DNA from: a bacterium
GTDB lineage: Bacteria > Calditrichota > Calditrichia > RBG-13-44-9 > J042
Direction: 5' to 3'
Assembly (NCBI GenBank): GCA_015494485.1
Contig: WGBF01000221.1
Span: forward strand, 1-32,108
DNA: 32,108 bases
Shown: in pieces, positions 12,212 to 32,005 of the stretch
Numbering within the stretch: the stretch's first letter is position 1
How the letters are laid out: each line of letters begins with the position of its first letter
The notes under the pieces: model-generated
What the model was told of the DNA's origin: nothing
Databases searched by the model: none
What the model saw: the letters and a program-made list of their open reading frames with translations, nothing else
Translations under genes and position numbers: made by a program

Positions 12212-12257
12212 CGGTTTTGTATTTAATTATTTTTTTAACATGAACAAAGGCAGGTAT

Positions 12258-12743: not shown

Positions 12744-12928
12744 CTCCACGCTTCCTTTTCGTTGCATTTGCAAACTTTCAAATTCTGGGTCAAATATTTG
12801 TAGCTACCGGTTTTTTCGGATTTGTACGTGGTGACCTTCTTCAAAAACAGATATTTTTCCCCGCACACCGGGCATGTGGGGATATCTGTTTTCATCATCT
12901 TTTGTGCGAACGACACTTTTTTTGCCAT
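12740..12928 (-). CDS. small 4-Cys zinc-ribbon protein (hypothetical)
   Basis: 62 aa with an AGGAG RBS. CPVCG...CKC pattern. It is the last gene of the ECF-sigma operon, 19 nt after the upstream stop. Confidence 0.55.
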   Translation of the reverse strand: MAKKVSFAQKMMKTDIPTCPVCGEKYLFLKKVTTYKSEKTGSYKYLTQNLKVCKCNEKEAWS

Positions 12929-12947
12929 GACCTGCTCCTAAAAATTT

Positions 12948-14675
12948 TTACACATATATTTTAATTTTCTCATTCTCATCGGTAGCCGCCTGAGTCACTA
13001 CCTGTTCTGCTTTTACCATAATGTCCAGCGGGTCATTTCCTGCAGTGGGGAACTCCACCAATCCCCACGACTGCTGCACCCCTGGAATTTCTCCACCACA
13101 CCAAACAGCTTTAACGGATATTTCCTTTTCCAGCTGTTCAATGTGGTCCATTACCTGGCGGCTGTTGCGATCCACCCAAAGCACCGCAAACAACCCGCCC
13201 GAAAGCCGGTAAATATAATTCATTTTCCCAAGATAAGGCAAGATGAAAGACAAATATTCCTTCAGAAATTGATCTTGAAGGACCTCGGGCAATTGCTCGA
13301 TGTTCGGTTCCAGAAGCTGCAAGTAGGCCAGCGTGGATACTCCCTTCCGTTCCTTCATCCGAATCAGTTCCTTCTCCAGATGTTCCTTAAACGCGGTAAA
13401 ATTGCCCAGCCCCGTCTGGAGATCGTATTTACTGGTTCGCACCCATTGCTCAATAAGGCGTTGTTTTTCAATAAATACCCCCACCATGGCACCAATGCCT
13501 TTTAACACTTCCCGGGTTTGTTCGCTAAAATGATTTGGTGCAAAACTTTCCAGAATGGTTACGACTGCATCTTCCCCATTAAAAATAAACGGTACGCCTA
13601 CCAGCGACCGGTACTCTCTGGCAGGGGGTTCATTTTCCATGAAACGGGGGATGTAATTTTCCTTAACGCTGAAATCGTCCACCAGTAAATCTTTTCCATT
13701 GCGAATTAACCATCCTACCAGTCCTTCCGTCAAACTGAACTCCGCTTCCGGCAATATTCCCCGAAAATCCCCGGCGGTAAACACAACCATTCCCGTTTCT
13801 GGACCCACCCGCCTGGCAAATGCCACCCGGTCCGCACCAAAATATTTTTTAAATGCCCCGGCTAAAAATTCCCACAGGTGTTCCAGGGTCTTTACATGAA
13901 GCAGCCCACGGGCAAAGTCAATATACACGGTATTTTCCCAGGACTGTTGCTCATATTGGAACATGCGACTGCTTTGCTGCAGCTCCAGTTCCAGAAGCCG
14001 GGCGTAATGCTGAAGTAAATCCACATCATCCGGGCCAAATGCCCCCTCACTGGCGGACGCCACAAACAACACCCCAATGGGTTTCCCCTGATATTCAACC
14101 GGAACGCCGGCAAACGATTGGACCGCTGGTGCCTGCGCCGGATGCGGGGGAATCAATTGATCGATTCTGCCGCTCAACTGATTTTCAATTAACGGCTCCT
14201 TTTGTTTAAACACCAATCCGGGCAACGTTGCTTCTCCGGCAAACTGTTTCTGCTGAGGCGCATGGCCATCCTGATGCAGAAAGTAACGGATGTGAAAGGT
14301 GTGCTTACCGGGATTTACCAGCAGAAAGGCGGCTTCATCTGCCACCAGCGTATTCAAAATGATGGGGAAAAGGGCATGAAGAAATTGCTGGTAATATTCC
14401 TGGGATACGTGTTCTTCCGGGCCATCATTGGGGTCCGACACCAGTTCTACTTCCAGCTGTTCCGGCTCTTCCGCCGGTTCCGCAGAGTCCGGTGCGCTAA
14501 GGACCTCCTTTTTTGTCAGGAAAAAGAAAGTTCCCCCAATGGCTGCCAGAATAACACCAACCTTAATAATAACAAAAAGGGTAGAATTTGGAAGGAAGGA
14601 GAGCACTGCCAATGCAATAAATACGGCCCCTGCCACCCCCCACAGCGTTGAACGTTCCTCAAGCATACTACTCAC
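12948..14675 (-). CDS. membrane-anchored tandem-GAF protein with degenerate GGDEF domain (SGGLF)
   Basis: 575 aa with two N-terminal TM helices and two GAF-like regions. The C-terminal GGDEF-fold region reads DLQTGLGNFTAFKEHL...YRLSGGLFAVLWVD. The signature codons at 13188-13202 read SGGLF instead of GG(D/E)EF. The start is GTG 14675; the alternative is ATG 14666. Confidence 0.78.
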   Translation of the reverse strand: MSSMLEERSTLWGVAGAVFIALAVLSFLPNSTLFVIIKVGVILAAIGGTFFFLTKKEVLSAPDSAEPAEEPEQLEVELVSDPNDGPEEHVSQEYYQQFLHALFPIILNTLVADEAAFLLVNPGKHTFHIRYFLHQDGHAPQQKQFAGEATLPGLVFKQKEPLIENQLSGRIDQLIPPHPAQAPAVQSFAGVPVEYQGKPIGVLFVASASEGAFGPDDVDLLQHYARLLELELQQSSRMFQYEQQSWENTVYIDFARGLLHVKTLEHLWEFLAGAFKKYFGADRVAFARRVGPETGMVVFTAGDFRGILPEAEFSLTEGLVGWLIRNGKDLLVDDFSVKENYIPRFMENEPPAREYRSLVGVPFIFNGEDAVVTILESFAPNHFSEQTREVLKGIGAMVGVFIEKQRLIEQWVRTSKYDLQTGLGNFTAFKEHLEKELIRMKERKGVSTLAYLQLLEPNIEQLPEVLQDQFLKEYLSFILPYLGKMNYIYRLSGGLFAVLWVDRNSRQVMDHIEQLEKEISVKAVWCGGEIPGVQQSWGLVEFPTAGNDPLDIMVKAEQVVTQAATDENEKIKIYV

Positions 14676-14695
14676 AAATTCCCGTTTGGCCGTTT

Positions 14696-15241
14696 TTAAT
14701 CACCCACCAGTTGCACAGGCCGTCCTGCTGTTCGGGGCACTGTGGCGTTATTTTTGGTGGAATCCAGTTGCGTTTCCGTCGGAGATGTCAGTGCTTTGGC
14801 GGGTGCAGCCGTGGCACCGGGAATTCCTGTCGGTGCGGCAACGGATTGCCGGATTGACGTCCGAAACTCGGTATTACCGGACTGCGCGGTATTGGGTTGC
14901 GGTGGGGATAACAACAGTACACCCAGAATTACAATTGATGCCACCGCTGAACCTATGGCTGGTATTTTCCAATTGTGTTTTAAGTTCAGTAACGGTCCCA
15001 TCCATGGTGAGGTATTGTTTAACTGCGCAATCCTGTCCTGAAGTTGGCGTTCAAAATGGGATGAGGTGGTAATTGGGGGAAGAGATTGAAGCGAACGGCG
15101 AATAATTTTAATCTGATAAATGGCTTCGCTGCAATCGGTACATACAGCGAGATGTGCTTCCAATGCCTGCCGTTCTTCTGAGAGCAATTCACCTTCAATG
15201 TAGCTGGAAAAATGAACCCGGAACTTGTCGCATTCTTGCAT
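14696..15241 (-). CDS. anti-sigma factor (zf-HC2 type) with one TM helix
   Basis: MQECDKFRVHFSSYIEGELLSEERQALEAHLAVCTDC matches the H-x3-C-x2-C anti-sigma zinc motif. There is a central TM helix (IPAIGSAVASIVILGVLLL). ATG 15241 is preferred over the TTG at 15247. Confidence 0.75.
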   Translation of the reverse strand: MQECDKFRVHFSSYIEGELLSEERQALEAHLAVCTDCSEAIYQIKIIRRSLQSLPPITTSSHFERQLQDRIAQLNNTSPWMGPLLNLKHNWKIPAIGSAVASIVILGVLLLSPPQPNTAQSGNTEFRTSIRQSVAAPTGIPGATAAPAKALTSPTETQLDSTKNNATVPRTAGRPVQLVGD

Positions 15242-15250
15242 AGGCAATCC

Positions 15251-15877
15251 TCATATTTTTGATTCCTCTTTACTCTTTTCTTCGTTCTCGAACAAAAATT
15301 TTAAATCTTCCTGCAATTTCAAACGTCCACGGTTCACCCGCGATTTCACGGTACCCAGGGGAATGTTCAATATCTGGCTAATTTCTTCATATGAAAACCC
15401 CTGCACATCCCGCAATAAAATCACCTCTTTAAATTTCGGCGGTAACTTTTCAATCGCCTTCTGAATAATATCATCTTTTATGGTTCCATCCACTTCCAGT
15501 TCCGGATTCTTATCTTCGTCTGGAATTTCATAATCTTTTTCTTCATTCATAAAATTACTAACGCTGAAAAGCTTTCTTCGTTTCCGTTTCCGCAATTCTG
15601 TTTTAGCTAAATTCCCTGCAATGGTGTAAATCCAGGTCGAAAACTTGGCAATTTCCTTATAGTAATGTTTATTTTTATAAACCCTCAAAAATGTTTCCTG
15701 AACAATATCTTCGGCATCGTTGCGGTTTCCCACAAAACGATAAACGAAGTTCAACAATTGGTCTTTATAGCGATGAACCAGAATGTCAAATGCCTGCTGA
15801 TCACCCTGCTGGAAACGTGCAATAAGTTCTTCATCCGTTACCTTTTGGGGTTTATTGTTCTTTTTTTTACCTGTCAT
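15251..15877 (-). CDS. ECF-subfamily RNA polymerase sigma-70 factor
   Basis: 208 aa. Region 2 (DAEDIVQETFLRVY, FSTWIYTIAGN) and region 4 (VILLRDVQGFSYEEISQILNIPLGTVKSRVNRGR). Confidence 0.9.
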   Translation of the reverse strand: MTGKKKNNKPQKVTDEELIARFQQGDQQAFDILVHRYKDQLLNFVYRFVGNRNDAEDIVQETFLRVYKNKHYYKEIAKFSTWIYTIAGNLAKTELRKRKRRKLFSVSNFMNEEKDYEIPDEDKNPELEVDGTIKDDIIQKAIEKLPPKFKEVILLRDVQGFSYEEISQILNIPLGTVKSRVNRGRLKLQEDLKFLFENEEKSKEESKI

Positions 15878-15926
15878 ATTAAAGTCGAATGTTTTACTGT
15901 TTGCAAGGTTTTGAGTTCCCGTTATA

Positions 15927-16934
15927 TTAAATCAAATTTATTAACCGGCCCAGCAAAATGTCAAGCAATAACTCAGGGGCCATCTGAGAGGATTTTAGTG
16001 CACCGTCCGTATCTTTTACGATCCGGAGGGCATCCTGCAATTCCTTCCATTTCCAGCGGCTGGCCTGATGGCGGTATTCCTGATAATGGCGGGAATAAAG
16101 CCCCAGCGCTTTTTGAACTTCCCGTTCAGTGTAGGTTTTGTCCAGGGCATATCCCTTAATTTTCCACATCAACAGCAGGGTGCGCTGGATGTGGAAAAGA
16201 ATGGAAAAGGGACTTTCCCCCCGTTCAATTAGCTGATGCAAATAGTTGAACGCCATTTTTTTATTTTTCTCACCCAGAGCACGGGTAAAATCGAACACCG
16301 TTTTGGTGGGGCGCTGGCGGACAAAATCCTCTACATCCTGAACCCGAATCGTTTCCTGCTGTTCGTAATAGTTGAATAACTGAACCAATTCCAGCCGAAT
16401 ATCCTGCAACTGATTTCCCACGTAAAACAAAAAGGTCTTTACCGCTTCCGGTTCAATGGTTTTGCCTTTTTTCTTGGCTTCCTGAAGAATCAGCCGTTCC
16501 AGGGCGCTGGAATCCAGGGTGCTGATCTCCACAACGGAAATAAGCGATTGGATTTTTTGAACAAACCGGGGCAACACCGCATCGCGAACCTGTAAAATCA
16601 GCAAAACATCCGGATTGGGTTGTTTTAAATAGGCAAGCAGCGGGTCCAGTTTTTTGGACTTTACTGCCTGAAAATCCCGATATTCCACCACCTTTTTTTC
16701 ACTGAACAGACTACCCCCGCCCCAGAGAGGTACCAGAGCCTGCAAAGGGGTTTCCGTTGCGTAACGGATAAAATAATTTATTTCTTTTTCCGGGGTGCCC
16801 AGGAAAGCCTCCACCAGTTCGCGCGTCACATCATCAATCAGGGCGGTTTCCTCCCCGTAAATTAAATACGCTGGCTGCAGTTGCTTTTCCTGCAGGGCTT
16901 TTTTTAATGCGGTGTAGTTGAGCAATGCGTTCAT
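15927..16934 (-). CDS. holA: DNA polymerase III subunit delta
   Basis: 335 aa. The N-terminus ...LQPAYLIYGEETALIDD, and the length and helical C-terminal domain, are typical of HolA. Confidence 0.8.
   Translation of the reverse strand: MNALLNYTALKKALQEKQLQPAYLIYGEETALIDDVTRELVEAFLGTPEKEINYFIRYATETPLQALVPLWGGGSLFSEKKVVEYRDFQAVKSKKLDPLLAYLKQPNPDVLLILQVRDAVLPRFVQKIQSLISVVEISTLDSSALERLILQEAKKKGKTIEPEAVKTFLFYVGNQLQDIRLELVQLFNYYEQQETIRVQDVEDFVRQRPTKTVFDFTRALGEKNKKMAFNYLHQLIERGESPFSILFHIQRTLLLMWKIKGYALDKTYTEREVQKALGLYSRHYQEYRHQASRWKWKELQDALRIVKDTDGALKSSQMAPELLLDILLGRLINLI
15933..15940 (-). promoter_or_regulatory. candidate -7 box TAAATTTG for the ECF-sigma operon
   Basis: The plus strand reads CAAATTTA, an exact TAnnTTTG on the minus strand, 56 nt upstream of ATG 15877. 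It lies inside the last codons of holA. Confidence 0.25.
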
Positions 16935-17035
16935 TTTACCTTTTCACTTTTCCAGGCTTTGCGTAAAAAATAGATAAAACCGCCCCAGATGATTGTCAAT
17001 TCAATGACCATCACAATAATGCTAAATGTTTCCAT
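16931..17035 (-). CDS. MetS-like small subunit of the NSS transporter (34 aa, single TM)
   Basis: Too short for the ORF track. Manual translation gives METFSIIVMVIELTIIWGGFIYFLRKAWKSEKVK. An AAGGGGG RBS precedes it. The ATG lies 14 nt inside the 3' end of the NSS gene, and its TGA overlaps the holA ATG (ATGA). Confidence 0.55.
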   Translation of the reverse strand: METFSIIVMVIELTIIWGGFIYFLRKAWKSEKVK

Positions 17036-18482
17036 TTTCCCCCTTTATCCACTTTGCTAACTTTGCATTCATGAATAGCAATGTACCGATTAAAATACCC
17101 CATTGCAAAAGGCAGGTCCCCAGACTGAACGGGATAAACGGGTTCCACCAATCCTGCGGATACCATTGCACGGATTGAATAAACCACCAGCCCAGTAAAA
17201 CAACCACTTCCACCGGAATCAAAAATTTCATTAAATAATCAAACCAGCGCCCCACCTGAATGTCATTGGTTGGAATTGCCAAAAAGGTTTCCCGAAAGCG
17301 GGTTACGCCATAATGAAGGACTGCAAATGTAAAAAATCCACCACTAATGATTAAGCCCAGCCCCCAAACCCAATCCTGGTTATCAAATACCTTCAGGGAC
17401 AGGGCGGAAGGGGCTCCCAGAATGGCGGTTAGTCCGGCGGTCACCATCAACGCCCGTTTTCGGGTCAGGCCAAAATCCATGAACACCCGCGTGCTTAATT
17501 CGAACATGGCAATCAATGAACTTAAGGCGGCAAAAAACAATCCAAGGAAAAATACCGATTGAAAAATAACCGCGCCTTTCAGGGTGGAAAACAATTGCGG
17601 AATGGCAATAAAGCTTAACCCCTGATTTCCCTGTTGCAGGGCGTTGAGCGCGTCTTCCGGTGAGGGGCTTAACGAAAACACCGATGGAATAATCGCCAAC
17701 CCGGCCAACAGGGAGGCAGAATTGTTCCCAAACCCGGCGATGAACGCATTGAGGGTGGTATCTTCTTTTTCCCGCATGTAAACCGCATAGGTTAATACCA
17801 ATCCCCACCCCGCACCGGTGGACCATGCCGATTGCGACAACCCTTCAAGCCACACTCTGTAATTAAACAGAGAGGCGGACTTAAACCCGAACAGGTAGTC
17901 CAGGCCCAGATTGGCATTGGGCAACGTCAACGCCCGCACAACGCCAATAATCAACAGAATAAGTAACGATGGCAGCAAAATTCGGTTCGCCCGTTCAATG
18001 CCGTTTACCACTCCCTGAACAATGACCAGTGACGCAATGGTCAAGGCAATAAAATGGTAGAGCAAGGGCTGATAACTGCTCTGGGTAAATTGATTCCAGA
18101 ATGCCGCCGGTTCTGTGGAGATCAGCGTTCCCTGAACGGCTGCCACAAAGTACCGCAGTGCCCATCCCGTTACCACGGAATAATAGAACATGATGCCCAT
18201 GGTACAGAATGCAACAAAGGCCCCCATCCATGTGTATTTTTTGCCCACAAAATCAGCAAAAGCGCCAATAGGCCCCTTCCGGGTGGTTTTACCCATGGAA
18301 AACTCCACCATGATCAGGGGAATGGACCATAATATCAGAAACAACGTCCAGGGGATGAGAAATGCACCACCGTATTGCCCCGCCAACCGCGGAAATCGCC
18401 AGATATTTCCCGCTCCCACCGCCATTCCCAGCGTGGAGAGCAACAACATCCATCGGGAAGAGAAAACTTCTTTCCGTTCCAT
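17022..18482 (-). CDS. sodium-dependent transporter, neurotransmitter:sodium symporter (NSS/SNF) family
   Basis: 486 aa with about 11-12 TM helices. The GAGNIWRFP motif in TM1 is diagnostic for NSS. Confidence 0.9.
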   Translation of the reverse strand: MERKEVFSSRWMLLLSTLGMAVGAGNIWRFPRLAGQYGGAFLIPWTLFLILWSIPLIMVEFSMGKTTRKGPIGAFADFVGKKYTWMGAFVAFCTMGIMFYYSVVTGWALRYFVAAVQGTLISTEPAAFWNQFTQSSYQPLLYHFIALTIASLVIVQGVVNGIERANRILLPSLLILLIIGVVRALTLPNANLGLDYLFGFKSASLFNYRVWLEGLSQSAWSTGAGWGLVLTYAVYMREKEDTTLNAFIAGFGNNSASLLAGLAIIPSVFSLSPSPEDALNALQQGNQGLSFIAIPQLFSTLKGAVIFQSVFFLGLFFAALSSLIAMFELSTRVFMDFGLTRKRALMVTAGLTAILGAPSALSLKVFDNQDWVWGLGLIISGGFFTFAVLHYGVTRFRETFLAIPTNDIQVGRWFDYLMKFLIPVEVVVLLGWWFIQSVQWYPQDWWNPFIPFSLGTCLLQWGILIGTLLFMNAKLAKWIKGENGNI

Positions 18483-18548
18483 TAGCGCCTCATTGTGAAT
18501 TTTCGTTGCGAATTTTAACTATTTCCGTCCGTATTCCAAAACCAATAT

Positions 18549-19718
18549 CTAAAATGAAGCACGGGCTTTGCGGTGCAAATGCCAGAAAGCACCAGCCGAA
18601 ATCAATTGCAAGACCACCACTACGCTGAGCATTACCGCCAGTTGCATTTCGTACAACCAGCCAATTAGGGTACTACCGGCAAACCAGGCCAGACCAAAGA
18701 TGCCGTTAAACAGACCGAATGCTGTTCCCCGCCGTTCCGCGGGCACCAGATCGCTGACAACCGCTTTTAAAATGGATTCCCGGGCACCCATGGCAACCCC
18801 CCACAGCACAATACCGGCTACCACCCACTGCGCAGAAAAACCAAACAAAAACAACGGGGCAACGGCACTAAACAACGCAGCAAACGCCATTACCTGAATA
18901 CCAGAACGGTCGTACCACCGCCCCAGCCCAAGGGCCGCCACTGCATCCACCCCCATGGCAACCGCGTAAACAACCGGAATCCAGGCATCCGCAATGACCG
19001 CACTGGCTTTCAGGTGATACGCAACCAAGGGAAAATCCACAAACCCGGCCCCTAAAAACACCGCCGCGAACAGAAATTGCTTAAACGTAAACGGCAATTG
19101 ATTGTCAGTCGGCGAAACGTTCTGCGTTTCAAACTCCTGGGGACGGGGAAAGAGTACCCGACCCACCACCAGCAGACTAAACGCAATGAGGGCCGGGATC
19201 AGCAACACAGCGTATCCCTGGCGGTAGGTATCATGCACAAACAAAATCCCCGCAAGCAGTAAAGGCCCGGCAACGGCGCCAATCTGGTCCATGGCTTCGT
19301 GCAGTCCAAACCCCCATCCGCTTCCCACGCTTCGGGTTGCTCCGGAAAGGAGCACATCCCGCGCCGGGGTGCGAATGGCTTTTCCCAACCGTTCGGCGAT
19401 CACCAGAGCCACAGCAACTTCCCACTGCCCGGCCAATGCCAACAGGGGTACTGCAAATAAATTCAAGGCATACCCAAAAAAGGTAAATCCCCAATACCAG
19501 CGGGTTTTGTCGCTCCAATAGCCAAACAGCATCCGCAGGGTAACGGAAACAAACTCCCCAAAGCCGGCCACCATGCTGACTACCAGTCCGGAGGCTCCCA
19601 GAATTTGCAAGAACGGTCCAATGGTGCTACGGGCGCCTTCGTAGGTCATATCCGCAAACAGACTTACCAGCCCCATCAAAATAATAAAATAATACGGAGA
19701 TGATTTTTTTACCGCCAT
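18549..19718 (-). CDS. MFS transporter
   Basis: 12-TM pattern. I set the start at ATG 19718 (MAVKKSSPYYFIILMGLVSLFADMTYEG), which has a GGAGG RBS. The 131-codon N-terminal extension in the track ORF is low-complexity and runs across the divergent promoter. Confidence 0.85.
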   Translation of the reverse strand: MAVKKSSPYYFIILMGLVSLFADMTYEGARSTIGPFLQILGASGLVVSMVAGFGEFVSVTLRMLFGYWSDKTRWYWGFTFFGYALNLFAVPLLALAGQWEVAVALVIAERLGKAIRTPARDVLLSGATRSVGSGWGFGLHEAMDQIGAVAGPLLLAGILFVHDTYRQGYAVLLIPALIAFSLLVVGRVLFPRPQEFETQNVSPTDNQLPFTFKQFLFAAVFLGAGFVDFPLVAYHLKASAVIADAWIPVVYAVAMGVDAVAALGLGRWYDRSGIQVMAFAALFSAVAPLFLFGFSAQWVVAGIVLWGVAMGARESILKAVVSDLVPAERRGTAFGLFNGIFGLAWFAGSTLIGWLYEMQLAVMLSVVVVLQLISAGAFWHLHRKARASF

Positions 19719-24677: not shown

Positions 24678-24929
24678 TTAGCATCCCTCTTCTTCTTCCC
24701 CTTCATGGAGCTGCATTTCCGGCGGCACTACCGGTTTTTGTGGCTGTGCTTGTATATTCGCGCCCCGTTCCACAGTTCGTGCCGTCGGACGATTCCACAA
24801 TTGCTGATACCGTTGCAACTTGCCGGCATTCAATTGCTCCGCAGACGGAAATGAAAACGCTACAATCAAAGCAATAACCATCAGAACAATCGATAACACT
24901 GTAAGAATTTTTAAATTTTCGTTGTTCAT
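24678..24929 (-). CDS. 83-aa membrane-anchored protein with acidic C-terminal ...HEGEEEEGC tail (hypothetical; candidate sulfur-carrier arm)
   Basis: AAAGGAGAA RBS. One N-terminal TM helix (ILTVLSIVLMVIALIVAFSF), then a Pro/Gln-rich linker. The single Cys is the last residue. The tail is paralogous to that of the 26250-26882 product. Confidence 0.65.
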   Translation of the reverse strand: MNNENLKILTVLSIVLMVIALIVAFSFPSAEQLNAGKLQRYQQLWNRPTARTVERGANIQAQPQKPVVPPEMQLHEGEEEEGC

Positions 24930-24948
24930 ACCCCATTCTCCTTTAAAC

Positions 24949-24976
24949 GCGGTGGGGAATAGAAATTCCCCACCGC
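24949..24976 (-). terminator. intercistronic perfect 12-bp stem-loop (GCGGTGGGGAAT-N4-ATTCCCCACCGC); possible attenuator or mRNA-stability element
   Basis: Read directly; 8 of the 12 pairs are G:C. On the minus strand it starts 10 nt after the rhodanese stop. It is followed by GTTTAAAGGAG, a weak U-tract that runs straight into the RBS of the next gene. Confidence 0.5.
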
Positions 24977-24986
24977 TGGTGTTTCC

Positions 24987-25862
24987 TTATTTGCATGCAG
25001 CGCAGGCAATGGCACAATCCGCGCAACTTGCCCATTCGTTCATCGAACCATCGTACAACCGCGCCGGTAATTTGGCAATTTCATTAAAAGCAAACCACCC
25101 AATAGAAGCGATATTCCCCGAATTACAAAAATGGATAGCAGGCGTACCCACGCCCTTTACTTTTGCCAGCGCTTTAATGGCATCTGCCGATTTGAAGGTC
25201 CAATCCGCATTAAAATACATCGTAAAGGGAATATTTATTGCGCCTTTAATGGTACCTGGCTTGGCCACCACTTTGTGTTTCTTCTTACCCAGATAGAAAT
25301 CTGCCGGCCGGTCATCCACAAGATATTTGGCTTTTTTCACGTCTTCCAGAGTGGCCAGAGCGGTTTTATTGAAATCCTTTAACGTGATATTGCCTTTTTT
25401 GGTAATCGTCGGTACTTCGGTGGATACCTTATATCCGTTAGCTTTCCAGGCTTTTAAACCACCATCCAGCACGGAAACGTTCACCCCAAAGTTTTTTAAG
25501 GTGAAGTAAGTCCGGGTGGCATAATACACCATTTTCAACTTCGTATCCGGCCATACCACAATAACGTGGGAATTGTTGGAAATCCCCAGGTCCCGGAGGT
25601 ACTGCTGTAATGCCGCCTTATCCGGCAACTCTGCCACCAATCCGTTCCGTTTGACTTCAATTTTTTTGAAGTCGGCCCGAATGGCCCCGGGGATATGCCC
25701 CTGCGCGTACACTTTGGCTGAGGACACATCCAGCACCACCACATTGGGCGCGTTTAAATTGTCATGAAGCCACTTGGCGAAAACCAGTGGTTGGGCATTA
25801 CCAATTGTTGCAGCGGCAAACACAAAAATCAGAATAAGGTACAACCATTTTACGGACCGCAT
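24987..25862 (-). CDS. secreted two-domain rhodanese (thiosulfate/3-mercaptopyruvate sulfurtransferase architecture) with Cys-rich C-terminal tail
   Basis: Sec signal peptide MRSVKWLYLILIFVFAAATIGNAQ. The N-terminal domain is inactive (VVWPDTK). The C-terminal domain is catalytic, with the loop HFCNSGNIAS. The protein ends in SCADCAIACAACK. AGGAGGG RBS. Confidence 0.85.
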   Translation of the reverse strand: MRSVKWLYLILIFVFAAATIGNAQPLVFAKWLHDNLNAPNVVVLDVSSAKVYAQGHIPGAIRADFKKIEVKRNGLVAELPDKAALQQYLRDLGISNNSHVIVVWPDTKLKMVYYATRTYFTLKNFGVNVSVLDGGLKAWKANGYKVSTEVPTITKKGNITLKDFNKTALATLEDVKKAKYLVDDRPADFYLGKKKHKVVAKPGTIKGAINIPFTMYFNADWTFKSADAIKALAKVKGVGTPAIHFCNSGNIASIGWFAFNEIAKLPARLYDGSMNEWASCADCAIACAACK

Positions 25863-25964
25863 TTTTCTGCCCTCCTATTTTTCTCTATATATTGGAGGAG
25901 TTACGATACATTTATCTTTCTGCATGATTAACACAGTACCCAAATTATTTATACGGCAACGAAA

Positions 25965-26012
25965 GAGGAAATTCCTCCTTTTCTATTGCACCTTATTCTT
26001 CTATCGCACCTT
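25965..26012. repeat. 13-bp palindrome GAGGAA-A-TTCCTC followed by two 14-bp direct repeats TTCTATYGCACCTT (18-bp period)
   Basis: Read directly. The palindrome is at 25965-25977 and the repeats are at 25981-25994 and 25999-26012 (13/14 identical). They lie 100-150 nt upstream of the rhodanese ATG (25862), within a 387-nt AT-rich spacer. Confidence 0.4.
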
Positions 26013-26249
26013 CTATTAAACTTGCATGGTAATTCATTATTCAAAACTGACAAATTAATCTATACTTTATATATGTGAAGAACCCGCTCTGATACAACCT
26101 TCTAAATCTAAAGATTCCAAATACAAAAGCCTTTTCCACTTATTTCCTGCTATGCTACACGAACAACTGACCAAAAGTCTTTAATGGTAATATGTATATC
26201 ATCCAAAGAACACATCTCTCTTAAAACCCGAAACATCCGCGTGTGACAA

Positions 26250-26882
26250 TTAACATCCTTCATCTTCTTCTTCAGCTTCCTGCAAGACAATATGCCGTTT
26301 TTTAGGTTTTTGGGGTTTAGACTGCGCAGCTGTAACTCCGATTCCTCCTTTGTTAAAATATTGGGAAGCTGCTTTCCGGAAGCTAAACTGCAGTACTTCC
26401 GTATCCGAAGACAAATCACTGGGAGGATTGGGATTCAAAATAGCTTTTGCCCAGTAGTTTAAGCCACCAAGCAAATAATAACTATTAATGCCCAACGTTT
26501 TTAGAATAACCCAGGCTTGCGCGCTATAACGGTCACCATTAGAATAAAGAATGAGGGTTTTGGTCCTCCGAAGCCATTTTATGTTTTCTGGAGAAACCAA
26601 CTGCCCCAGGGGTATATTTTCTGCGCCTTCAAGATGGTATTGCATATATTCATCTTTACGACGCAGGTCAATAATTGTAATACCCGGTTTTTTGTTAATA
26701 ATCCAATCGGCTAATTGTTCTGCCGTCACATAATCACTCTGGCTTAAAATAGAATTAATAATATCCTGTGGGGAAAAACGTTGAAATTTTTTTTCTCCTG
26801 CAGGAGAGATTGCCAGTAAAAATCCAAGTAAAAGTAACACTAAAATGCCAACTTCTTTGGTGAATAGTTGTTTTAGTTTCAT
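26250..26882 (-). CDS. membrane-anchored single rhodanese-like domain protein lacking the catalytic Cys (Ser114), with acidic ...QEAEEEDEGC C-terminal tail
   Basis: N-terminal anchor or signal KEVGILVLLLLGFLLAIS. The rhodanese fold pattern (ITIIDLRRKDEY..GHLEGAENIP...LILYSNGDRYSAQAWVILKTLG) has TCT (Ser) at 26541-26543 where the C-x5-R loop Cys is expected. The only Cys is the last residue. Confidence 0.8.
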   Translation of the reverse strand: MKLKQLFTKEVGILVLLLLGFLLAISPAGEKKFQRFSPQDIINSILSQSDYVTAEQLADWIINKKPGITIIDLRRKDEYMQYHLEGAENIPLGQLVSPENIKWLRRTKTLILYSNGDRYSAQAWVILKTLGINSYYLLGGLNYWAKAILNPNPPSDLSSDTEVLQFSFRKAASQYFNKGGIGVTAAQSKPQKPKKRHIVLQEAEEEDEGC

Positions 26883-26911
26883 GACCTTCTCACCCCTAAC
26901 AATTATTTTTA

Positions 26912-27523
26912 TTATTCCATTGGTGTTTCACCTTCAATAATTTCACCGAATTTCTTTTCAATTAGTTCAGCTACTTTAAACAATCCCCATGCCATCAGAA
27001 TAACTAAAAAGGCAACAACACCTGGTCGCCATCCTAACCATTCAGGTAGCGTTACCCTACCCATAGGATGGCCATTAATGAAATTTTGAACAAAAGGATA
27101 TATCTCACCAAATATCCACATTCCAAATAACGCACCGCCCACATAAAACATTCCATCCAATTTCCCAATGGCACTGGCTACCAGAGAAGTTCCAGGACAA
27201 AATCCACCAATAACAAACCCTAAGCCCATTAGAACCCCACCCAGAATTTGTCCATTTAAAATGGTTGGTGGCACATATACTAAAGAAATGTCCAGAATTT
27301 CAGCCCAATTTAGATATAGCAATCCTACCATAGCCACAACGATAGCGGTAAACATGACTTTCAACACAGCCATATCCTTCAAATAGAATTGGTAAGCCAA
27401 TTTTCTGGAATTGCCAAAGCCTGAACTTTCCAAAATGTAGCCAAATAACAATCCGATAATGAATGCGAAAATCAAGCTGGTATCAAATCCAAAATATCCC
27501 AATTTGTATAATGGTGCAATCAT
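26912..27523 (-). CDS. YeeE/YedE-family sulfur-transport membrane protein (half-size, second of pair)
   Basis: 203 aa with 4-5 TM helices. It carries the conserved GGFCPGTS motif of the PF04143-type 'sulphur transport' repeat. GTGAGGT RBS. Confidence 0.82.
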   Translation of the reverse strand: MIAPLYKLGYFGFDTSLIFAFIIGLLFGYILESSGFGNSRKLAYQFYLKDMAVLKVMFTAIVVAMVGLLYLNWAEILDISLVYVPPTILNGQILGGVLMGLGFVIGGFCPGTSLVASAIGKLDGMFYVGGALFGMWIFGEIYPFVQNFINGHPMGRVTLPEWLGWRPGVVAFLVILMAWGLFKVAELIEKKFGEIIEGETPME

Positions 27524-27538
27524 GATTTTTACCTCACA

Positions 27539-28057
27539 TTATATCCATTGTTTACGCAAAAAATACGCGAACGCATATGCCGCAATAAACATTACCCAGA
27601 GGAAAATCCAGCTTCCCAAACTCAACGTGGCCCCTCCGGTAAGCCCCTGGCCACTGGTACATCCACGAGCAATACGTGCACCAATACCCATAGTCATTCC
27701 ACCCAGAAAAGCTAATAGCCAGCGTCCTTTATTGGAAATGCGGGGTCCATGATCGGTTTTAAAGCCTAATCGGCCATGGATATAGCCTGATAAGAAACCA
27801 CCAAAGAGGACACCCAGAATTTCAAATACCAACCAGGCTTTCAAGGGAGAACCACCTTTTAAATATTTGGCAAAATAAGGGTTAGCTTGAGCATGTTCAG
27901 GGCTGACTAATGATAAAATGTAGGTAACCAATCTCATTTCTCCGCCAGATGCTCCCAGGCCCCGTCCCATGATAAAAAAGGTCATCAATAACAAAAGGCC
28001 TAACATCAATCCAGCAAAATAAGGATTCCAATACGGTTTAGACTGCGGCTTTTTCAT
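27539..28057 (-). CDS. YeeE/YedE-family sulfur-transport membrane protein (half-size, first of pair)
   Basis: 172 aa with 4 TM helices and the conserved ARGCTSGQGLTG motif. AAGGAG RBS. Confidence 0.82.
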   Translation of the reverse strand: MKKPQSKPYWNPYFAGLMLGLLLLMTFFIMGRGLGASGGEMRLVTYILSLVSPEHAQANPYFAKYLKGGSPLKAWLVFEILGVLFGGFLSGYIHGRLGFKTDHGPRISNKGRWLLAFLGGMTMGIGARIARGCTSGQGLTGGATLSLGSWIFLWVMFIAAYAFAYFLRKQWI

Positions 28058-28078
28058 TAGGTTTCTCCTTTATCATTA

Positions 28079-29014
28079 TTAGAACGAACTCAATTGTCCC
28101 GCTTGAACAAAAATAAATCGCATTAAAATGCCCCCAAATAAAATCAATACTGCTGCCACACGGGTTCGCTTTCCTAAATTGGATATTTCCAGTGTTTCCA
28201 AAATAGCGGGTATTATAATACCTAATCCCACAACCAAAACCCAAAACGAAGCAGTATAGGGACCACCTAAGAATAATTTAGCAGCTTGTATTTTCACTTC
28301 ACTGGAAGCCAGTAATCCCATAAATAGATGGATGATAAAAAACAATTCAAGACTTATGGTCATCAAATCAATCTTGTTTAATAACAAATGTTCCTCATGA
28401 TTTTTAGAAAGTAACATTAGAAATGCTAGACCTGTGGACAGACCGGATACTAAGAATAGAGGCCCTAAAATTGCAGAATTCCAGAAAGGACGGGCATTAA
28501 AAGCACTAAGTAATATTCCGGTATACATTCCTAAAATCATCGACAATACCATTAAAATCCAGGCCAGAAGCTTGCTCTTTTTTTGAGTATAGGAAACAAC
28601 AGATTGAAAAACCGGATGCGGCCATCGCCATTTTGGAAATACCGATGTAATGTGCAACATCGCCCATAAGATACTCAAGGGTAATATAGTGATTAGGGTC
28701 CATGCCCCCCAAGACATAGGCGATTTCAATCGTAATGTCATATAAAATCGAAACAAATGGAGTTTATAATCCAGATCTAGAAATAATGCAAACATCCCAA
28801 TTGCCAATAAAATAGGGGCCCAAATAGCTCCCAATCGAACAATAGCGGGATATTCCTCCTCTTTTCCGCGTAAATAATATAAAGCAGAAAAGAAGAGTAA
28901 CCCTGCCACTAAGCCACCTAAAAACAAATAGGTTGGAATTTGCCAGTGCCAGATGGTTAAATATGGGTCAATCAAGTGGTTATGGCGTCCGCTAACGATC
29001 GTCACTTCGTGCAT
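28079..29014 (-). CDS. nrfD: NrfD/PsrC-family molybdoenzyme membrane anchor subunit
   Basis: 311 aa with 8 predicted TM helices. The N-terminus W.IPTYLFLGGLVAGL is typical of the NrfD/PsrC family. It directly follows the 4Fe-4S subunit gene. Confidence 0.88.
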   Translation of the reverse strand: MHEVTIVSGRHNHLIDPYLTIWHWQIPTYLFLGGLVAGLLFFSALYYLRGKEEEYPAIVRLGAIWAPILLAIGMFALFLDLDYKLHLFRFYMTLRLKSPMSWGAWTLITILPLSILWAMLHITSVFPKWRWPHPVFQSVVSYTQKKSKLLAWILMVLSMILGMYTGILLSAFNARPFWNSAILGPLFLVSGLSTGLAFLMLLSKNHEEHLLLNKIDLMTISLELFFIIHLFMGLLASSEVKIQAAKLFLGGPYTASFWVLVVGLGIIIPAILETLEISNLGKRTRVAAVLILFGGILMRFIFVQAGQLSSF

Positions 29015-29029
29015 GGCTCGACCTCACTA

Positions 29030-29566
29030 TTACGTTAAATAGAACACTTTGGGTTTAGTCCCCGCCTCTGGGTGCAATACATGATGATGGCGGGTCTTTA
29101 ACAATTTGGATACTTCACTTTCCGGATCATCCAGATCACCAAAATGCATCGCATGTGTAGGGCAAACTTCCACACATGCTGGCAGCAAGCCTTCCTTCAA
29201 GCGATGTTCACAAAATGTACATTTATCCACATACCCTTCCGGATGGACATACCGGGCATCATAAGGGCAGGCTGCTATACATGCTTTACAACCAGTGCAC
29301 TTATCCTTATCCACCAGTACAATTCCCCCTTCCACCACGTGGCTGGCGCCGGTAGGACAGCACCGAACACAAGGAGGATTTTCACAATGATTACATCGTT
29401 CGGATCGAATTTCCATATATAATTCCGGAAATAATCCCTGTACATCCTGCACAATCCAATCCCGACAATACCCCACCGGGACGTTATTCTCCGTCTGGCA
29501 GGCTACCACACAATCGCCACACCCGACACATCGTTGCGTATCAATTACCATTCCATATCGGGCCAT
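29030..29566 (-). CDS. 4Fe-4S dicluster-domain electron-transfer subunit (PsrB/PhsB/NrfC type)
   Basis: Four Cys clusters: CVGCGDCVVAC, CNHCENPPCVRCCP, CTGCKACIAACP and CTFCEHRL...CVEVCP. GGAGGA RBS. Confidence 0.9.
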   Translation of the reverse strand: MARYGMVIDTQRCVGCGDCVVACQTENNVPVGYCRDWIVQDVQGLFPELYMEIRSERCNHCENPPCVRCCPTGASHVVEGGIVLVDKDKCTGCKACIAACPYDARYVHPEGYVDKCTFCEHRLKEGLLPACVEVCPTHAMHFGDLDDPESEVSKLLKTRHHHVLHPEAGTKPKVFYLT

Positions 29567-29584
29567 GATGTCCTCCGTTATTGC

Positions 29585-31837
29585 TTAAGCGGTTAGCTTT
29601 TTTACTTTTCGAAATGTAACAAAATTGGTTCGTAAACCTGTTCCCCCCATAACGGGGTCCGTTTTTACTTTCGTAATTAATTTTGCGGTTGAAGCACCTT
29701 TTTTATAGGCGCGTTTTAAACGCCTATCCCAGTGACCAAAACCATGGACCATATAGACACAATCATGCCGGATGCGTTCGGTTACTTTTACACGGATTTT
29801 ATTACTGCGCGCGCCATCCTGATTTTCTAATATCACATATTCCCCATTTTTAATGCCATGCAATTGGGCTACTGTCGGATGCACCCATACTTCATTCTCC
29901 TTCATCAATTGATATAATAGAGGATTATTGGTAGTACGGCTAAAGCTATGCATTGGTGCACGCCCATAAATCAATCGATAATACCCCTCTGGAGGTTCTT
30001 CGGGATGTTCATAAGTGGGTAAGGGATCAAACCCTGCAGCTTCCATTACGGTGGAATATAATTCGATCTTACCTGTGGGAGTTCTAAACCGCGGCTGAAT
30101 ACCTTCTTCAAAATAAATCGGCGTTTTTTGTTCGGGTAAACGAACCACCCCTTTCTTTTTTAGTTCCGCTAGCGATAAGCCAACTTGCTTAAGACGATAA
30201 TCCAGATACTCTTCAATATCATTCCATGGGAACCATTTATCCAGCCCCAGACGATGTGCCAATTGTTTCGCCATCCACCAGGAAGGTTTGCTTTCCCACC
30301 TCGGCGGGAAAGCCGGGGCTCGCAATGCAATGGTAGGCATTTTCCCTTGAGAAATCCGTAAATCATCATACCGTTCCAGATATGTACATTCCGGTAATAC
30401 CACATCCGCCCAGCCAGTAATTTCGGAGGGGATAATATCTATGACGGCAATGAAATCTAATTTCTGGATAGCATCAATAGTTTTTTGCGGTTCTGGCAGA
30501 GTCATTAAAAGATTTGTAGCATTTACCATCCAACCTTTGATTGGATGTGTAGCATTATCTCCTTGCAAAGTTACATCACGAAGCACATTTGTTGGTGCTT
30601 TACGTGCTAATGGATATTGATCTAGGGTTAAATCTTTCCAAGTCCACCGCGGCTCCGGGAAGGGTGGGAGAGGATATTTAGGTACCCGAGCTTTGTTTGG
30701 ATAATAGTACCCTCCCCGTCTACCCCAGGAACCGAGCAAAGCGACTAGTATGGCTAATGCCCGTTCCCGTTGGGTATCGTTGCCATACCAAGTAACGTGG
30801 CGCCCGGGATGAATCAAAGTTGCCGGTTTTTGCATGGCCATCTCCCGAGCAGTTTGTCGAATGATATGAGGTTTGATTGTAGTAATTGGGTAAGCCCATT
30901 CCGGGGTGTAAGGCTGAATAAATTTCTTTAATTTATCAAAACCATAAGTATATTTTTCTACATATTCCTTATCATATAAATTTTCTTGAATCATTACATT
31001 GATCCAGGCCAGTAATAAAGCTAAATCTGTTCCCGGCCGAATGGGTAACCAATATTTTGATTTACTAGCTGCAGTGGAATAACGAGGATCCACTGTAATG
31101 ATTGTTGCACCTCGAGCCACCGCGTCAGAAAATTCCTGAACCTGAGAATTCAACATATTTTCACCAATATGACTCCCTATCAATACAATACAACGCGCAT
31201 TAGGGATATCAATCCGTTCTGGAGAACCAATTCCCTCTCCAAATGTTAAGCGAAATCCTTCCTCCCTGGGCCCACGGCATTGGGCATAAGAAGGTTCAGC
31301 AATTGTGTCAGAACCAAAAGCTTTGAATAACGGTTCAAAAAAACGGCTCCCAGAACCATGGGTAAACAACGCCATGCTTTCCGGACCATATTTATCCGCA
31401 ATTTTCTTCATATTTTCTGCAATAAAATCCAATGCTTCTTCCCATGTTACTTGAACAAATTGTTGCTTTCCTCGCACAACCTTTCGCATTAAAGGATATT
31501 TTAATCGTTCGTTATCCGTATATGCCCCTATGCCACCTGTTCCCCGGGGACACAATCGTCCATTGCAATTCGGATCGTCTTTATGCCCAACGATCTTCCA
31601 AGGTTTGCCATCAACTTTGTATACCCAACCAGCACATTTCCAGAAACAAATCTCACAATATGTGGGACTCACTTCCAGGTTTCCCGGGGTATTAGGACCA
31701 ACCAACGGTAAAGCATCAGCTTGAGGCCACTCGGACTCGGAAACAATAGCCTCCAGAGCTTTACCCCCAATTGCCAAACCCGCAACACCTATTCCACTAA
31801 TTTTAAGAAACTCCCGCCGAGTAAACTTCGGACTCAT
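29585..31837 (-). CDS. Tat-exported molybdopterin (bis-MGD) oxidoreductase catalytic subunit, PsrA/PhsA (polysulfide/thiosulfate/tetrathionate reductase-like) family
   Basis: 750 aa. Twin-arginine signal FTRREFLKISGIGVAGLAIG. N-terminal FS0 motif CEICFWKC-x28-C. RLKYPLMR and a candidate Mo-ligand Cys in SYAQCRGP. There is no in-frame TGA. AAGGAG RBS. Confidence 0.88.
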   Translation of the reverse strand: MSPKFTRREFLKISGIGVAGLAIGGKALEAIVSESEWPQADALPLVGPNTPGNLEVSPTYCEICFWKCAGWVYKVDGKPWKIVGHKDDPNCNGRLCPRGTGGIGAYTDNERLKYPLMRKVVRGKQQFVQVTWEEALDFIAENMKKIADKYGPESMALFTHGSGSRFFEPLFKAFGSDTIAEPSYAQCRGPREEGFRLTFGEGIGSPERIDIPNARCIVLIGSHIGENMLNSQVQEFSDAVARGATIITVDPRYSTAASKSKYWLPIRPGTDLALLLAWINVMIQENLYDKEYVEKYTYGFDKLKKFIQPYTPEWAYPITTIKPHIIRQTAREMAMQKPATLIHPGRHVTWYGNDTQRERALAILVALLGSWGRRGGYYYPNKARVPKYPLPPFPEPRWTWKDLTLDQYPLARKAPTNVLRDVTLQGDNATHPIKGWMVNATNLLMTLPEPQKTIDAIQKLDFIAVIDIIPSEITGWADVVLPECTYLERYDDLRISQGKMPTIALRAPAFPPRWESKPSWWMAKQLAHRLGLDKWFPWNDIEEYLDYRLKQVGLSLAELKKKGVVRLPEQKTPIYFEEGIQPRFRTPTGKIELYSTVMEAAGFDPLPTYEHPEEPPEGYYRLIYGRAPMHSFSRTTNNPLLYQLMKENEVWVHPTVAQLHGIKNGEYVILENQDGARSNKIRVKVTERIRHDCVYMVHGFGHWDRRLKRAYKKGASTAKLITKVKTDPVMGGTGLRTNFVTFRKVKKLTA

Positions 31838-31960
31838 ATGAGTCTCCTTTTCGTTTTGGCCTTTAATTGGTTATAATTATCTTTTCGCATGTTTAAACCA
31901 CTCTCGTCAAGTAATAGACATATTCAGAAAATATACCTGATTTTTTTTATTTTCATTTTC

Positions 31961-32005
31961 TCATTCACAATACTGTAAAATTTCACTCGTTCAATCATTC
32001 ACAAT
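31961..32005. repeat. two exact 11-bp direct repeats TCATTCACAAT, 34 bp apart, upstream of the molybdoenzyme operon
   Basis: Read directly at 31961-31971 and 31995-32005. They lie 124-168 nt upstream of ATG 31837, and each contains a TCACA half-site. Confidence 0.4.

Follow-up and report, generated by a model that had tools for sequence, protein, structure and literature searches.

Terminal-cysteine tails beside a Psr/Phs-type molybdoenzyme and a split YeeE pair: candidate sulfur-carrying arms in bacteria of the FCB group

Metagenomic surveys of sulfur cycling nearly all count enzymes of the Psr/Phs type, whose activity is assumed to be directed at free polysulfide or thiosulfate. In Wolinella, the rhodanese-fold protein Sud passes polysulfide sulfur to Psr, and in other systems sulfur travels on a protein arm: SoxY carries it on a GGCGG arm and DsrC on a C-terminal cysteine arm. 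We know of no YeeE pair that belongs to classical Psr systems. Here we describe a locus at positions 24678–31837 of contig WGBF01000221.1 – a 32,108-nucleotide bacterial sequence whose whole length is called the window below – that combines genes for a Psr/Phs-type enzyme, two half-size YeeE/YedE proteins and a rhodanese-fold protein, RhGC, whose C-terminal tail ends in a cysteine. The six-gene cassette they form, the conservation of the tail and its association with Psr go far beyond chance. The tails may serve as periplasmic persulfide-carrying arms with PsrA as main client and the YeeE pair as second, a reading that we hold to be evenly poised.

The gene cluster itself is not new. A phsABC–pmpAB–sulfurtransferase cluster has been noted in Candidatus Electryonea clarkiae, Candidatus Lernaella stagnicola and Caldithrix abyssi, with its function called unclear (Williams et al. 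2022, PMC9324843), and that of C. abyssi has been described as psrABC with two sulfurtransferases (Kublanov et al. 2017, PMC5317091). The cassette of the window very probably belongs to this cluster type, having the same six-gene organisation, as far as the descriptions go, and coming from the same broad bacterial group. Both papers treat the last gene as a sulfurtransferase and leave its function and the transported species unclear; neither mentions loss of the catalytic cysteine, a terminal-cysteine tail, a tailed PsrA or a cassette swap (PMC9324843, PMC5317091). Our literature searches returned no description of a Cys-less rhodanese, a terminal-cysteine tail, a tailed PsrA, a cytochrome b::YeeE fusion or a cassette swap in such systems and, for terminal-cysteine carriers with Psr, nothing beyond these cluster descriptions and the ergothioneine synthase MES, to which we return below. 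The original prediction, made from the window alone, knew of no described Psr/Phs system with dedicated C-terminal-Cys carrier proteins; the gene cluster was already in print, and for the tail we found no description in the literature.

The locus consists of eight co-oriented open reading frames (ORFs) on the minus strand, as called from the window, and is a composite of two modules: Module 1 (26250–31837, six genes) and Module 2 (24678–25862, Rh2 and T83). In what follows, L-numbers denote fetched genome or metagenome loci, P0149 and P0151 are protein clusters, and A' is the PsrA of an alternative cassette. The features of the locus are these:

29585–31837, minus strand: A, PsrA/PhsA-type catalytic subunit of the molybdenum–bis(pyranopterin guanine dinucleotide) (Mo-bisPGD) class, 750 aa, without a C-terminal tail (Pfam, twin-arginine translocation (Tat) motif TRREFLK, match to Thermus PsrA)
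29030–29566, minus strand: B, PsrB-type four-cluster iron–sulfur subunit, 178 aa (Fer4_11 and related Pfam matches)
28079–29014, minus strand: C, PsrC-type NrfD membrane anchor, predicted to oxidise quinol, 311 aa (Pfam NrfD, 160.6 bits)
27539–28057, minus strand: Y1, PmpA-like half-size YeeE/YedE protein that corresponds to the C-terminal part of YeeE, 172 aa (Sulf_transp profile 174–309)
26912–27523, minus strand: Y2, PmpB-like half-size YeeE/YedE protein that corresponds to the N-terminal part of YeeE, 203 aa (Sulf_transp profile 9–150, DUF6691)
26250–26882, minus strand: RhGC, 210 aa, made up of an N-terminal helix (signal or anchor), a rhodanese domain that lacks Cys and has Y-S-N-G in its loop, a further helix and a disordered Gly-Cys tail (Pfam Rhodanese, AlphaFold2 (AF2) model)
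26253–26351, minus strand: flexible C-terminal arm of RhGC, residues 178–210, ending ...EAEEEDEGC (AF2, predicted local distance difference test (pLDDT) 42–55)
25888–31993, no strand: swapped segment, comprising the six-gene cassette and most of the 387-nt spacer (blastn against L087, G+C content)
24987–25862, minus strand: Rh2, Sec-exported two-domain rhodanese with an active-site cysteine and a Cys-rich end, CADCAIACAACK, 291 aa (Pfam, ORF, synteny with L085–L091)
24949–24976, no strand: G+C-rich hairpin of 12 bp between Rh2 and T83 (sequence, terminator-like scan)
24678–24929, minus strand: T83, single-pass membrane protein ending ...PPEMQLHEGEEEEGC, 83 aa (ORF; no family match)

Several elements of the original prediction are borne out by this anatomy. 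Pfam and NCBIfam domain matches confirm the gene identities it had assigned, the view of a periplasm-facing system is supported, and the ORF coordinates agree with its spacing of 15–29 nt within the first six genes followed by 387 nt: the gaps along A–B–C–Y1–Y2–RhGC measure 18, 15, 21, 15 and 29 nt, that between RhGC and Rh2 387 nt and that between Rh2 and T83 57 nt. Its count of nine genes comes down to eight, no credible ninth gene having been found in the locus, where the sole other ORF of the spacer (26150–26419) overlaps RhGC out of frame. RhGC ends in QEAEEEDEGC and T83 in HEGEEEEGC; both close with a TAA stop codon, so selenocysteine read-through past the tail cysteine is not involved and was ruled out.

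Sequence comparison supports A–B–C as a Psr/Phs-type enzyme. The Molybdop_Fe4S4, Molybdopterin and Molydop_binding domains of Pfam all exceed their cutoffs in A, and together with an N-terminal FS0 cluster motif and the twin-arginine motif TRREFLK they characterise it as a Mo-bisPGD subunit predicted to be exported by Tat. It scores 683 bits against PsrA of Thermus thermophilus (PDB 2VPW/2VPZ), and the equivalents of the Thermus residues Cys173 – the Mo ligand – His145 and Arg332 are identical in A (phmmer alignment to 2VPW_A), while it reaches 133 bits against ArrA and 33 bits against TtrA (NCBIfam). The NCBIfam equivalog for PhsA (NF012032, cutoff 694 bits) is reached neither by A, with 482 bits, nor by A' of L085, with 541 bits. 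B carries a 4Fe-4S dicluster domain (Fer4_11, 88.7 bits in Pfam) and is 64–85% identical across related loci; with the NrfD anchor C it is encoded directly beside A (gaps of 18 and 15 nt), the arrangement of PsrABC. The enzyme shares with Thermus PsrABC (2VPZ) and Wolinella succinogenes PsrABC the Tat-exported catalytic subunit with Cys-ligated Mo-bisPGD, the four-cluster subunit and the NrfD anchor, and, as with Sud in the Wolinella Psr–Sud system, a periplasmic rhodanese-fold helper – here RhGC – is co-encoded. Salmonella PhsABC belongs to the same PsrA/PhsA lineage, although both A and A' stay below the PhsA cutoff. Its anchor, PhsC, binds haem b and is FdnI-like, resembling in this the FdnI-like cytochrome b of the alternative cassette in L085–L091 and L217; unlike the cassettes described here, Salmonella Phs comes without YeeE halves, tail or rhodanese.

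How widely the cassette occurs was assessed by a scan for RhGC relatives over one genome per GTDB species, which returned at least 262 loci; the best 80 of the 262 were fetched and compared. These come from Calditrichota, KSB1, Bacteroidales, Marinilabiliales, Cytophagia-labelled metagenome-assembled genomes (MAGs) and Neomarinimicrobiota, and include two cultured carriers, Labilibaculum manganireducens and Ancylomarina sp. DW003; the literature yielded nothing useful on the sulfur physiology of the former. According to tblastn with the eight proteins of the window, the order A–B–C–Y1–Y2–RhGC is kept in 57 of the 58 loci with at least 5.6 kb of upstream sequence, all of them from the Fibrobacteres–Chlorobi–Bacteroidetes (FCB) group, and the 23 shorter contigs are all compatible with it. 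Recurrent neighbours are genes for the molybdenum cofactor – MobA in 27 loci, judged by sequence and by an NTP_transf_3 match on the L002 member – accompanied by Crp/Fnr-like regulators and, in a few loci, by SQR-like, DsrC and DsrE_2 genes; selenium-utilisation genes are absent from the recurrent neighbour families of the cassette. Just upstream of psrA, 13 loci (L001, L003, L006, L009, L011, L012, L016, L018, L026, L035, L046, L047 and L050) encode a MerR-family regulator with a Cys-rich C-terminal region (e.g. CWALRPC…C…C…C…C…CRVC), a candidate sensor for the operon; the corresponding region of the window falls past its end. Another contig, L005 (WAPZ01000430.1, 4.5 kb), matches 24.5–29 kb of the window at ~100% and stems from a MAG labelled Candidatus Heimdallarchaeota, most likely through a binning error, since every flanking gene and every relative is bacterial, from the FCB group.

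RhGC is an exported rhodanese fold encoded with psr genes, as its N-terminal helix, its well-modelled core and its conserved place in the operon indicate, but it departs from Sud at the decisive residue. Sud binds sulfur on the cysteine of its active-site loop, a position occupied by Ser in 73 of 79 RhGC homologues, by Gly, Thr or Ala in the remainder and by Cys in none. RhGC places its cysteine instead at the end of a disordered tail; the family thus lacks the loop cysteine of a Sud-type catalytic rhodanese. The Y-S-N-G surroundings of the loop are nearly invariant in the same 79 homologues, which points to selection acting on a pocket that is no conventional site of sulfur transfer. AF2 models RhGC as an N-terminal helix, a rhodanese core (pLDDT above 90), one further helix and a tail, residues 178–210, with pLDDT of 42–55; a Foldseek search with this model retrieved generic single-domain rhodaneses only and no specific relative.

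The tail cysteine is strongly conserved. It is last or next-to-last in 81 of the 84 complete RhGC homologues from the loci, down to 29% identity – the endings being GC (73 proteins), GGCS (five), GGCD (two) and SC (one) – and all 16 homologues from protein databases end in Gly-Cys. The commonest ending is x-G-G-C, with a GGC end in 49 of the complete homologues, and in 65 of 79 distinct homologues the tail cysteine is the only one in the protein. The original prediction had anticipated that the tail would be conserved in orthologous loci, as the terminal or penultimate cysteine of these 81 proteins is; the acidic, [DE]-rich stretch that it took for a general motif proved lineage-specific, an acidic run being limited to the window's own subclade, while the conserved feature is a terminal (G)GC after a Lys/Arg-rich stretch and the family norm a Lys-rich sequence followed by GGC. 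Such endings are rare outside these families: the window and the fetched loci contain 9543 ORFs with a length of 40 aa or more, of which 109 end in GC, and all but 17 of these belong to the RhGC, T83 or tailed-PsrA families. The number of tail proteins per operon varies, since a second, tandem RhGC-like gene follows the first in L074 (2124–2552), L075 (10633–11034), L101 (5535–6164) and L157 (8482–9072).

A more direct tie to the enzyme comes from fusions. The Tat-exported A' itself ends in ...PPMEEVEEEEGC (...EEEEGC), also given as …PPPKTIPPMEEVEEEEGC, and a tail borne by a Tat-exported PsrA is both periplasmic and linked to PsrA. A search with A against 1.84 billion representative proteins for further tailed PsrA proteins added two clusters with Pro-rich, Cys-terminated C-terminal extensions, P0149 (…KVKLEDSC) and P0151 (…KSEGC). 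The P0151 locus encodes TorD, the tailed PsrA, PsrB, an unfused cytochrome b, two YeeE halves and a degenerate rhodanese ending …GGGEGC, and the AF2 model of P0151 has a confident core with residues 754–791 disordered; in the P0149 locus (L219, 3414–8197), a 386-aa protein with a GILT thiol-reductase domain lies upstream of the tailed PsrA and a PsrB::cytochrome b fusion downstream.

Tails were also sought without recourse to homology, by scanning metagenome contigs for DNA encoding E-E-E-E-G-C-stop. This gave at least 120 loci; most of the matches listed do not close a real ORF, but at least about 18 distinct ORFs of 75 aa or more do. Among the roughly 18 ORFs listed, at least 10 are exported rhodanese-like or TPR-like (tetratricopeptide repeat) proteins or small membrane proteins, among them a membrane-anchored tail protein that resembles T83 without being homologous to it, and several carry lipoprotein or Sec signals, which places their tails outside the cytoplasm. 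Among the matches listed, at least eight of the EEEEGC ORFs adjoin Psr and/or YeeE genes (L101, L115/L135/L202, L146, two in L157, L186, L190 and L195). L157 and L186 have Psr without YeeE, and the tail protein of L186 is a rhodanese with an active cysteine as well as the tail. In L211 (8543–10364), a TPR-like protein with a signal peptide that ends in EEEEGC is encoded upstream of a full-length YeeE/YedE of two domains (397 aa), 20 nt away, amid cobalamin and glycine-cleavage genes and with no Psr nearby; a homologue of this TPR-like tail protein occurs in L199. The pattern search with gene neighbourhoods that the original prediction had proposed therefore turned out positive, tying the tail to Psr-type enzymes in 57 of 58 loci and through the eight or more EEEEGC ORFs beside Psr or YeeE. 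Tails have been attached repeatedly and independently – to PsrA, to dead or live rhodanese scaffolds and to a bare anchor.

The closest functional analogy is to SoxY and DsrC. With SoxY the tails share a cysteine in a Gly-rich motif on a flexible C-terminal arm (49 GGC and five GGCS endings, together with the disorder seen by AF2), and the proposed role is that of both SoxY and DsrC, namely a covalent sulfur carrier presented to an enzyme. The scaffold differs, being a rhodanese domain, a bare membrane anchor or PsrA itself rather than the SoxY or DsrC fold, and the client would be a Mo-bisPGD reductase. There is one tail cysteine here as against two in DsrC, and no SoxZ partner: RhGC has a rhodanese fold, and neither the Pfam-annotated loci nor the annotated neighbour families contain a SoxY or SoxZ domain.

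Y1 and Y2 cover complementary parts of the Sulf_transp profile (174–309 and 9–150 in Pfam) and are adjacent in all loci of the six-gene cassette, which is the split known from PmpA/PmpB. The sole cysteine of Y1, C133 in an RGCTSG motif, is invariant in 69 of 69 homologues, and that of Y2, C109 in GGFCPG, is kept in 69 of 70, so that RhGC, Y1 and Y2 together have three cysteines, one each, all conserved. PmpA and PmpB likewise have one cysteine per half, corresponding to the functionally essential Cys293 and Cys91 of TsuA (PMC11582611), and the GCTSG and GGFCPG motifs fit that description, the match being one of motif description. Characterised proteins of the YeeE family are importers that need their cysteine residues and a thiol partner (PMC11582611; PMC13047784). 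The nearest counterparts are PmpA/PmpB, TsuA (YeeE)–TsuB (YeeD) and SoxT: two half-size Sulf_transp proteins with one conserved cysteine each match PmpA/B as described, and they are associated with a thiol-bearing partner. Unlike PmpA/B, whose halves have ~130 aa, those of the window are longer (172 and 203 aa) and embedded in a Psr operon, in one variant with a half fused to a quinol-oxidising cytochrome b, a fusion that speaks for the YeeE pair being a physical component of the complex; moreover, the candidate thiol partner is periplasmic here, whereas in the Tsu/Pmp systems it is a cytoplasmic TusA-like protein. The best NCBIfam match of Y1 is YedE/FdhT, far below cutoff.

Module 2 has a different history. 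The two rhodanese domains of Rh2 come with a Sec-type signal (…GNA/QPL) and a cysteine at the active site (HFCNSG); in NCBIfam, Rh2 matches the ExtH rhodanese of a selenite/tellurite reduction operon, far below cutoff. The four-Cys end C-x2-C-x3-C-x2-C-K (24987–25025) occurs only in homologues of at least 76% identity from the same lineage as T83, and was rejected as a general feature of Rh2 because it is absent at 47% identity or less. T83 has database homologues in two clusters only (96% and 72% identity, from one narrow lineage, with identical tails), to which L091 adds an 80-aa homologue with a diverged middle and the same tail; the conservation of its tail thus rests on three or four sequences. 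Rh2 and T83 are always found together, and the contigs of the T83 homologues and of close Rh2 relatives share the window's downstream genes, for an alpha/beta hydrolase, asd, a pseudouridine synthase and a CLC channel. In L085–L091 these two genes are preceded by the alternative cassette, which encodes a TorD-like chaperone, A' (778–780 aa, Tat-exported, scoring 805 bits against Thermus PsrA and sharing 50% identity with A), a 243-aa iron–sulfur subunit, a 498-aa anchor in which an FdnI-like cytochrome b is fused to a YeeE half, and the other YeeE half. The closest relatives of the window's own cassette, L094–L096 (~75% nucleotide identity), occupy the same site directly beside the hydrolase without Rh2 and T83, and no other fetched locus of the six-gene type has the two genes, save a contig identical to the window. 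In a blastn comparison of the window with L087, identity is 98.3% from 25887 down to 19000 and 89.6% at 32108–31994, with only short, weak matches in between, and the G+C content of the swapped segment is 0.37–0.45 as against 0.48–0.53 in the flank.

Judged from these alignments and the gene order, the six-gene cassette of the window took the place of five genes of another Psr cassette, of which Rh2 and T83 remain; the idea that the whole locus forms one system is accordingly not borne out, both genes being leftovers of the other cassette by blastn and by synteny with L085–L091 and L094–L096. GIY-YIG domain ORFs of ~82 aa lie just upstream of the variable cassette site in L090 (1–892, three in tandem) and L095 (461–712), and might be connected with the exchange. 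The hairpin at 24949–24976 sits between the Rh2 stop and the T83 start, its coding strand having no T-run after the hairpin, and it might tune the two messages relative to each other, in expression or in stability. Matches in a promoter scan of the 387-nt spacer were no more numerous than expected from shuffled sequence, FCB-type promoters lying outside the models of the tool.

The mechanism that we propose starts from features that are directly established: the composition of the cassette, its conservation, the extracytoplasmic location of the tails, the single-Cys pattern, tail disorder and the fusion of tail to PsrA. The terminal cysteine would be the thiol of a swinging arm that takes up sulfane sulfur, as a persulfide or polysulfide chain, from S8, polysulfide or another donor, assisted by a rhodanese where one is present. 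The arm would then bring this sulfur into the active site of PsrA, where quinol-derived electrons would free H2S and regenerate the thiol, and the same arm would swap sulfur with the single invariant cysteine of each YeeE half, so that part of the sulfur would cross the membrane – probably inward, the direction in which characterised YeeE-family proteins work. That sulfur rides on the tail and which partners it visits we infer from the single-Cys economy, the disorder and extracytoplasmic location of the tails, their repeated independent attachment and the exclusively sulfur-handling company they keep. A bolder version would make a protein persulfide on the terminal-cysteine arm the physiological substrate and unite arm, YeeE cysteines and anchor in a single supercomplex, where quinol oxidation would be coupled to the passage of sulfur from cysteine to cysteine through the membrane, a respiratory analogue of SoxY/DsrC chemistry on a molybdoenzyme; we advance it tentatively, as possible but doubtful. 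Some precedent for the chemistry is offered by MES, the metallopterin-dependent ergothioneine synthase of C. abyssi, a bis-molybdopterin guanine dinucleotide (bis-MGD) enzyme for which resulfurisation of the Mo centre by a protein persulfide has been proposed (PMC9516567). MES and the cassette share a bis-MGD enzyme with a proposed protein-borne persulfide delivered through a Cys relay; MES differs in being cytoplasmic and biosynthetic, in its fusion to a cysteine desulfurase, and in being neither part of a respiratory complex nor equipped with a terminal-cysteine tail.

Several points weigh against a carrier arm serving PsrA. The proposal draws on sequence comparison, AF2 models and precedents. 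AF2 leaves the tails of RhGC and of the tailed PsrA P0151 unplaced (pLDDT below 55), tail charge ranges from polybasic to polyacidic and so implies no single docking surface, and the charges flanking the membrane segment of T83 are ambiguous as to its orientation. PsrA, PhsA and SrrA form one lineage within which similarity cannot assign substrate (PMC7331816). The role of the YeeE pair and the direction in which it would transport sulfur are read from relatives. Caldithrix abyssi, for which the homologous cluster has been reported, does not respire elemental sulfur or thiosulfate with H2 or acetate; it reduces them only during peptone fermentation, a reaction attributed by the authors to other enzymes (PMC5317091).

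Each of the rivals that follow is less well supported than an arm with PsrA as its client, save that the thiosulfate-loading scheme, taken up last, is judged on its own evidence. Rather improbable is the alternative closest to it, in which the arms mainly serve the YeeE channel as periplasmic partner of a PmpAB-like pair, sulfane sulfur passing from cysteine to cysteine across the membrane, while PsrABC reduces free polysulfide or thiosulfate alone and is co-encoded only through the shared sulfur pool; this would parallel the role proposed for SoxYZ with SoxT and mirror that of cytoplasmic TsuB with TsuA. The accessory trio of RhGC, Y1 and Y2, with exactly three invariant cysteines, one each, would fit it well, as would the tail protein encoded 20 nt upstream of a full-length YeeE in L211, far from any Psr, and the need of characterised, importing YeeE relatives for cysteine and a thiol partner (PMC11582611; PMC13047784). 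It does not account for tails fused to PsrA in at least three PsrA clusters, nor for tail proteins that accompany Psr in the absence of YeeE (L157 and L186). An enzyme running in the oxidative direction, taking sulfide to the sulfane level on the arm thiol, passing electrons to menaquinone and leaving the persulfide sulfur to enter the cytoplasm through the YeeE pair, where it would be used or oxidised further, is improbable. Established redox potentials speak for it: oxidation of sulfide to the sulfane level with menaquinone is exergonic, and the reverse is near equilibrium. The importing habit of YeeE relatives and the SQR-like, DsrC and DsrE_2 genes beside the cassette also suit this direction, but such neighbours are confined to few loci, the closest solved relative of A is a polysulfide reductase, most carriers are fermentative FCB anaerobes, and C. 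abyssi makes sulfide from elemental sulfur and thiosulfate (PMC5317091).

Very improbable, in our judgement, is a selenium system made up of an SrrA-like selenite reductase, YedE-like selenium transporters and an arm bearing a selenopersulfide: SrrA does share the lineage of PsrA and PhsA (PMC7331816), and in NCBIfam the best match of Y1 is YedE/FdhT and Rh2 matches ExtH, yet both lie far below cutoff, A is very similar to Thermus PsrA, the neighbours in a few loci are sulfur-specific, and selenium-utilisation genes are missing from the recurrent neighbour families. We give equally little credence to a terminal cysteine that carries no chalcogen at all and acts in metal binding, redox sensing, auto-inhibition as a plug, or assembly and tethering. 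The inferred nature of the carrier chemistry, the wide variation of tail charge and the silence of AF2 on docking would leave room for such a function; the exclusive pairing of tails with sulfur-handling partners (PsrA, YeeE and rhodanese scaffolds) and the single-Cys economy of three accessory proteins, typical of persulfide relays, speak for a sulfur carrier instead.

The scheme put forward in the original prediction, in which Rh2 moves the sulfane sulfur of thiosulfate onto the EEGC arms of RhGC and T83 and Psr reduces only protein persulfide, bypassing direct thiosulfate reduction, is unlikely to be correct. Rh2 is predicted to be exported and has its active-site cysteine, it always co-occurs with T83, and in the window's lineage the RhGC tail is acidic like that of T83, while it is basic in the rest of the family. 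Rh2 and T83 stem, however, from a different cassette and are absent from all other fetched six-gene loci, L094–L096 included. More generally, no active rhodanese lies within 10 kb of the cassette in any other fetched locus of the six-gene type, although distant relatives such as L157 and L186 have one, so loading by a rhodanese cannot be the general mechanism. Nor does the energetic rationale hold. E0' (the standard redox potential at pH 7) of thiosulfate reduction to HS- and sulfite is about -400 mV, as against about -74 mV for menaquinone; the overall E0' is unchanged by an intermediate carrier, and because free energy is independent of path, a carrier cannot make the reduction by menaquinol more favourable and would help only if sulfite were removed – a removal that could be ascribed to the YeeE pair as speculation. 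What stands of the earlier interpretation of a Psr carrier arm is the link of the tail to Psr and the conserved terminal cysteine; the unity of the locus, the acidic motif, the generality of an active rhodanese and the energetics do not.

Should a tethered persulfide, wired to a membrane sulfur channel, indeed be the substrate in these at least 262 species-representative genomes, whose best matches fall in the FCB group, gene-based assignments of 'polysulfide/thiosulfate respiration' to these abundant sediment and gut-related bacteria would have to be revised, and there would be a possible explanation for C. abyssi carrying the genes yet not respiring elemental sulfur or thiosulfate. The carrier-arm principle of SoxY and DsrC would extend to a Mo-bisPGD respiratory enzyme, and the poorly understood PmpA/B half-transporters would gain a defined partner. 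The strain-level swap at one site presents the two Psr cassettes as interchangeable units and offers a natural experiment.

The remainder of the window looks ordinary. Positions 1–19000 encode a LarC-type Ni insertion protein, a SpoU methylase, MazG, a histidine kinase with a sigma-54 response regulator, and GNAT, LiaF-like and HD proteins, and by synteny with L087 also an extracytoplasmic function (ECF) sigma/anti-sigma pair, the delta subunit of DNA polymerase III, and SNF and MFS transporters.

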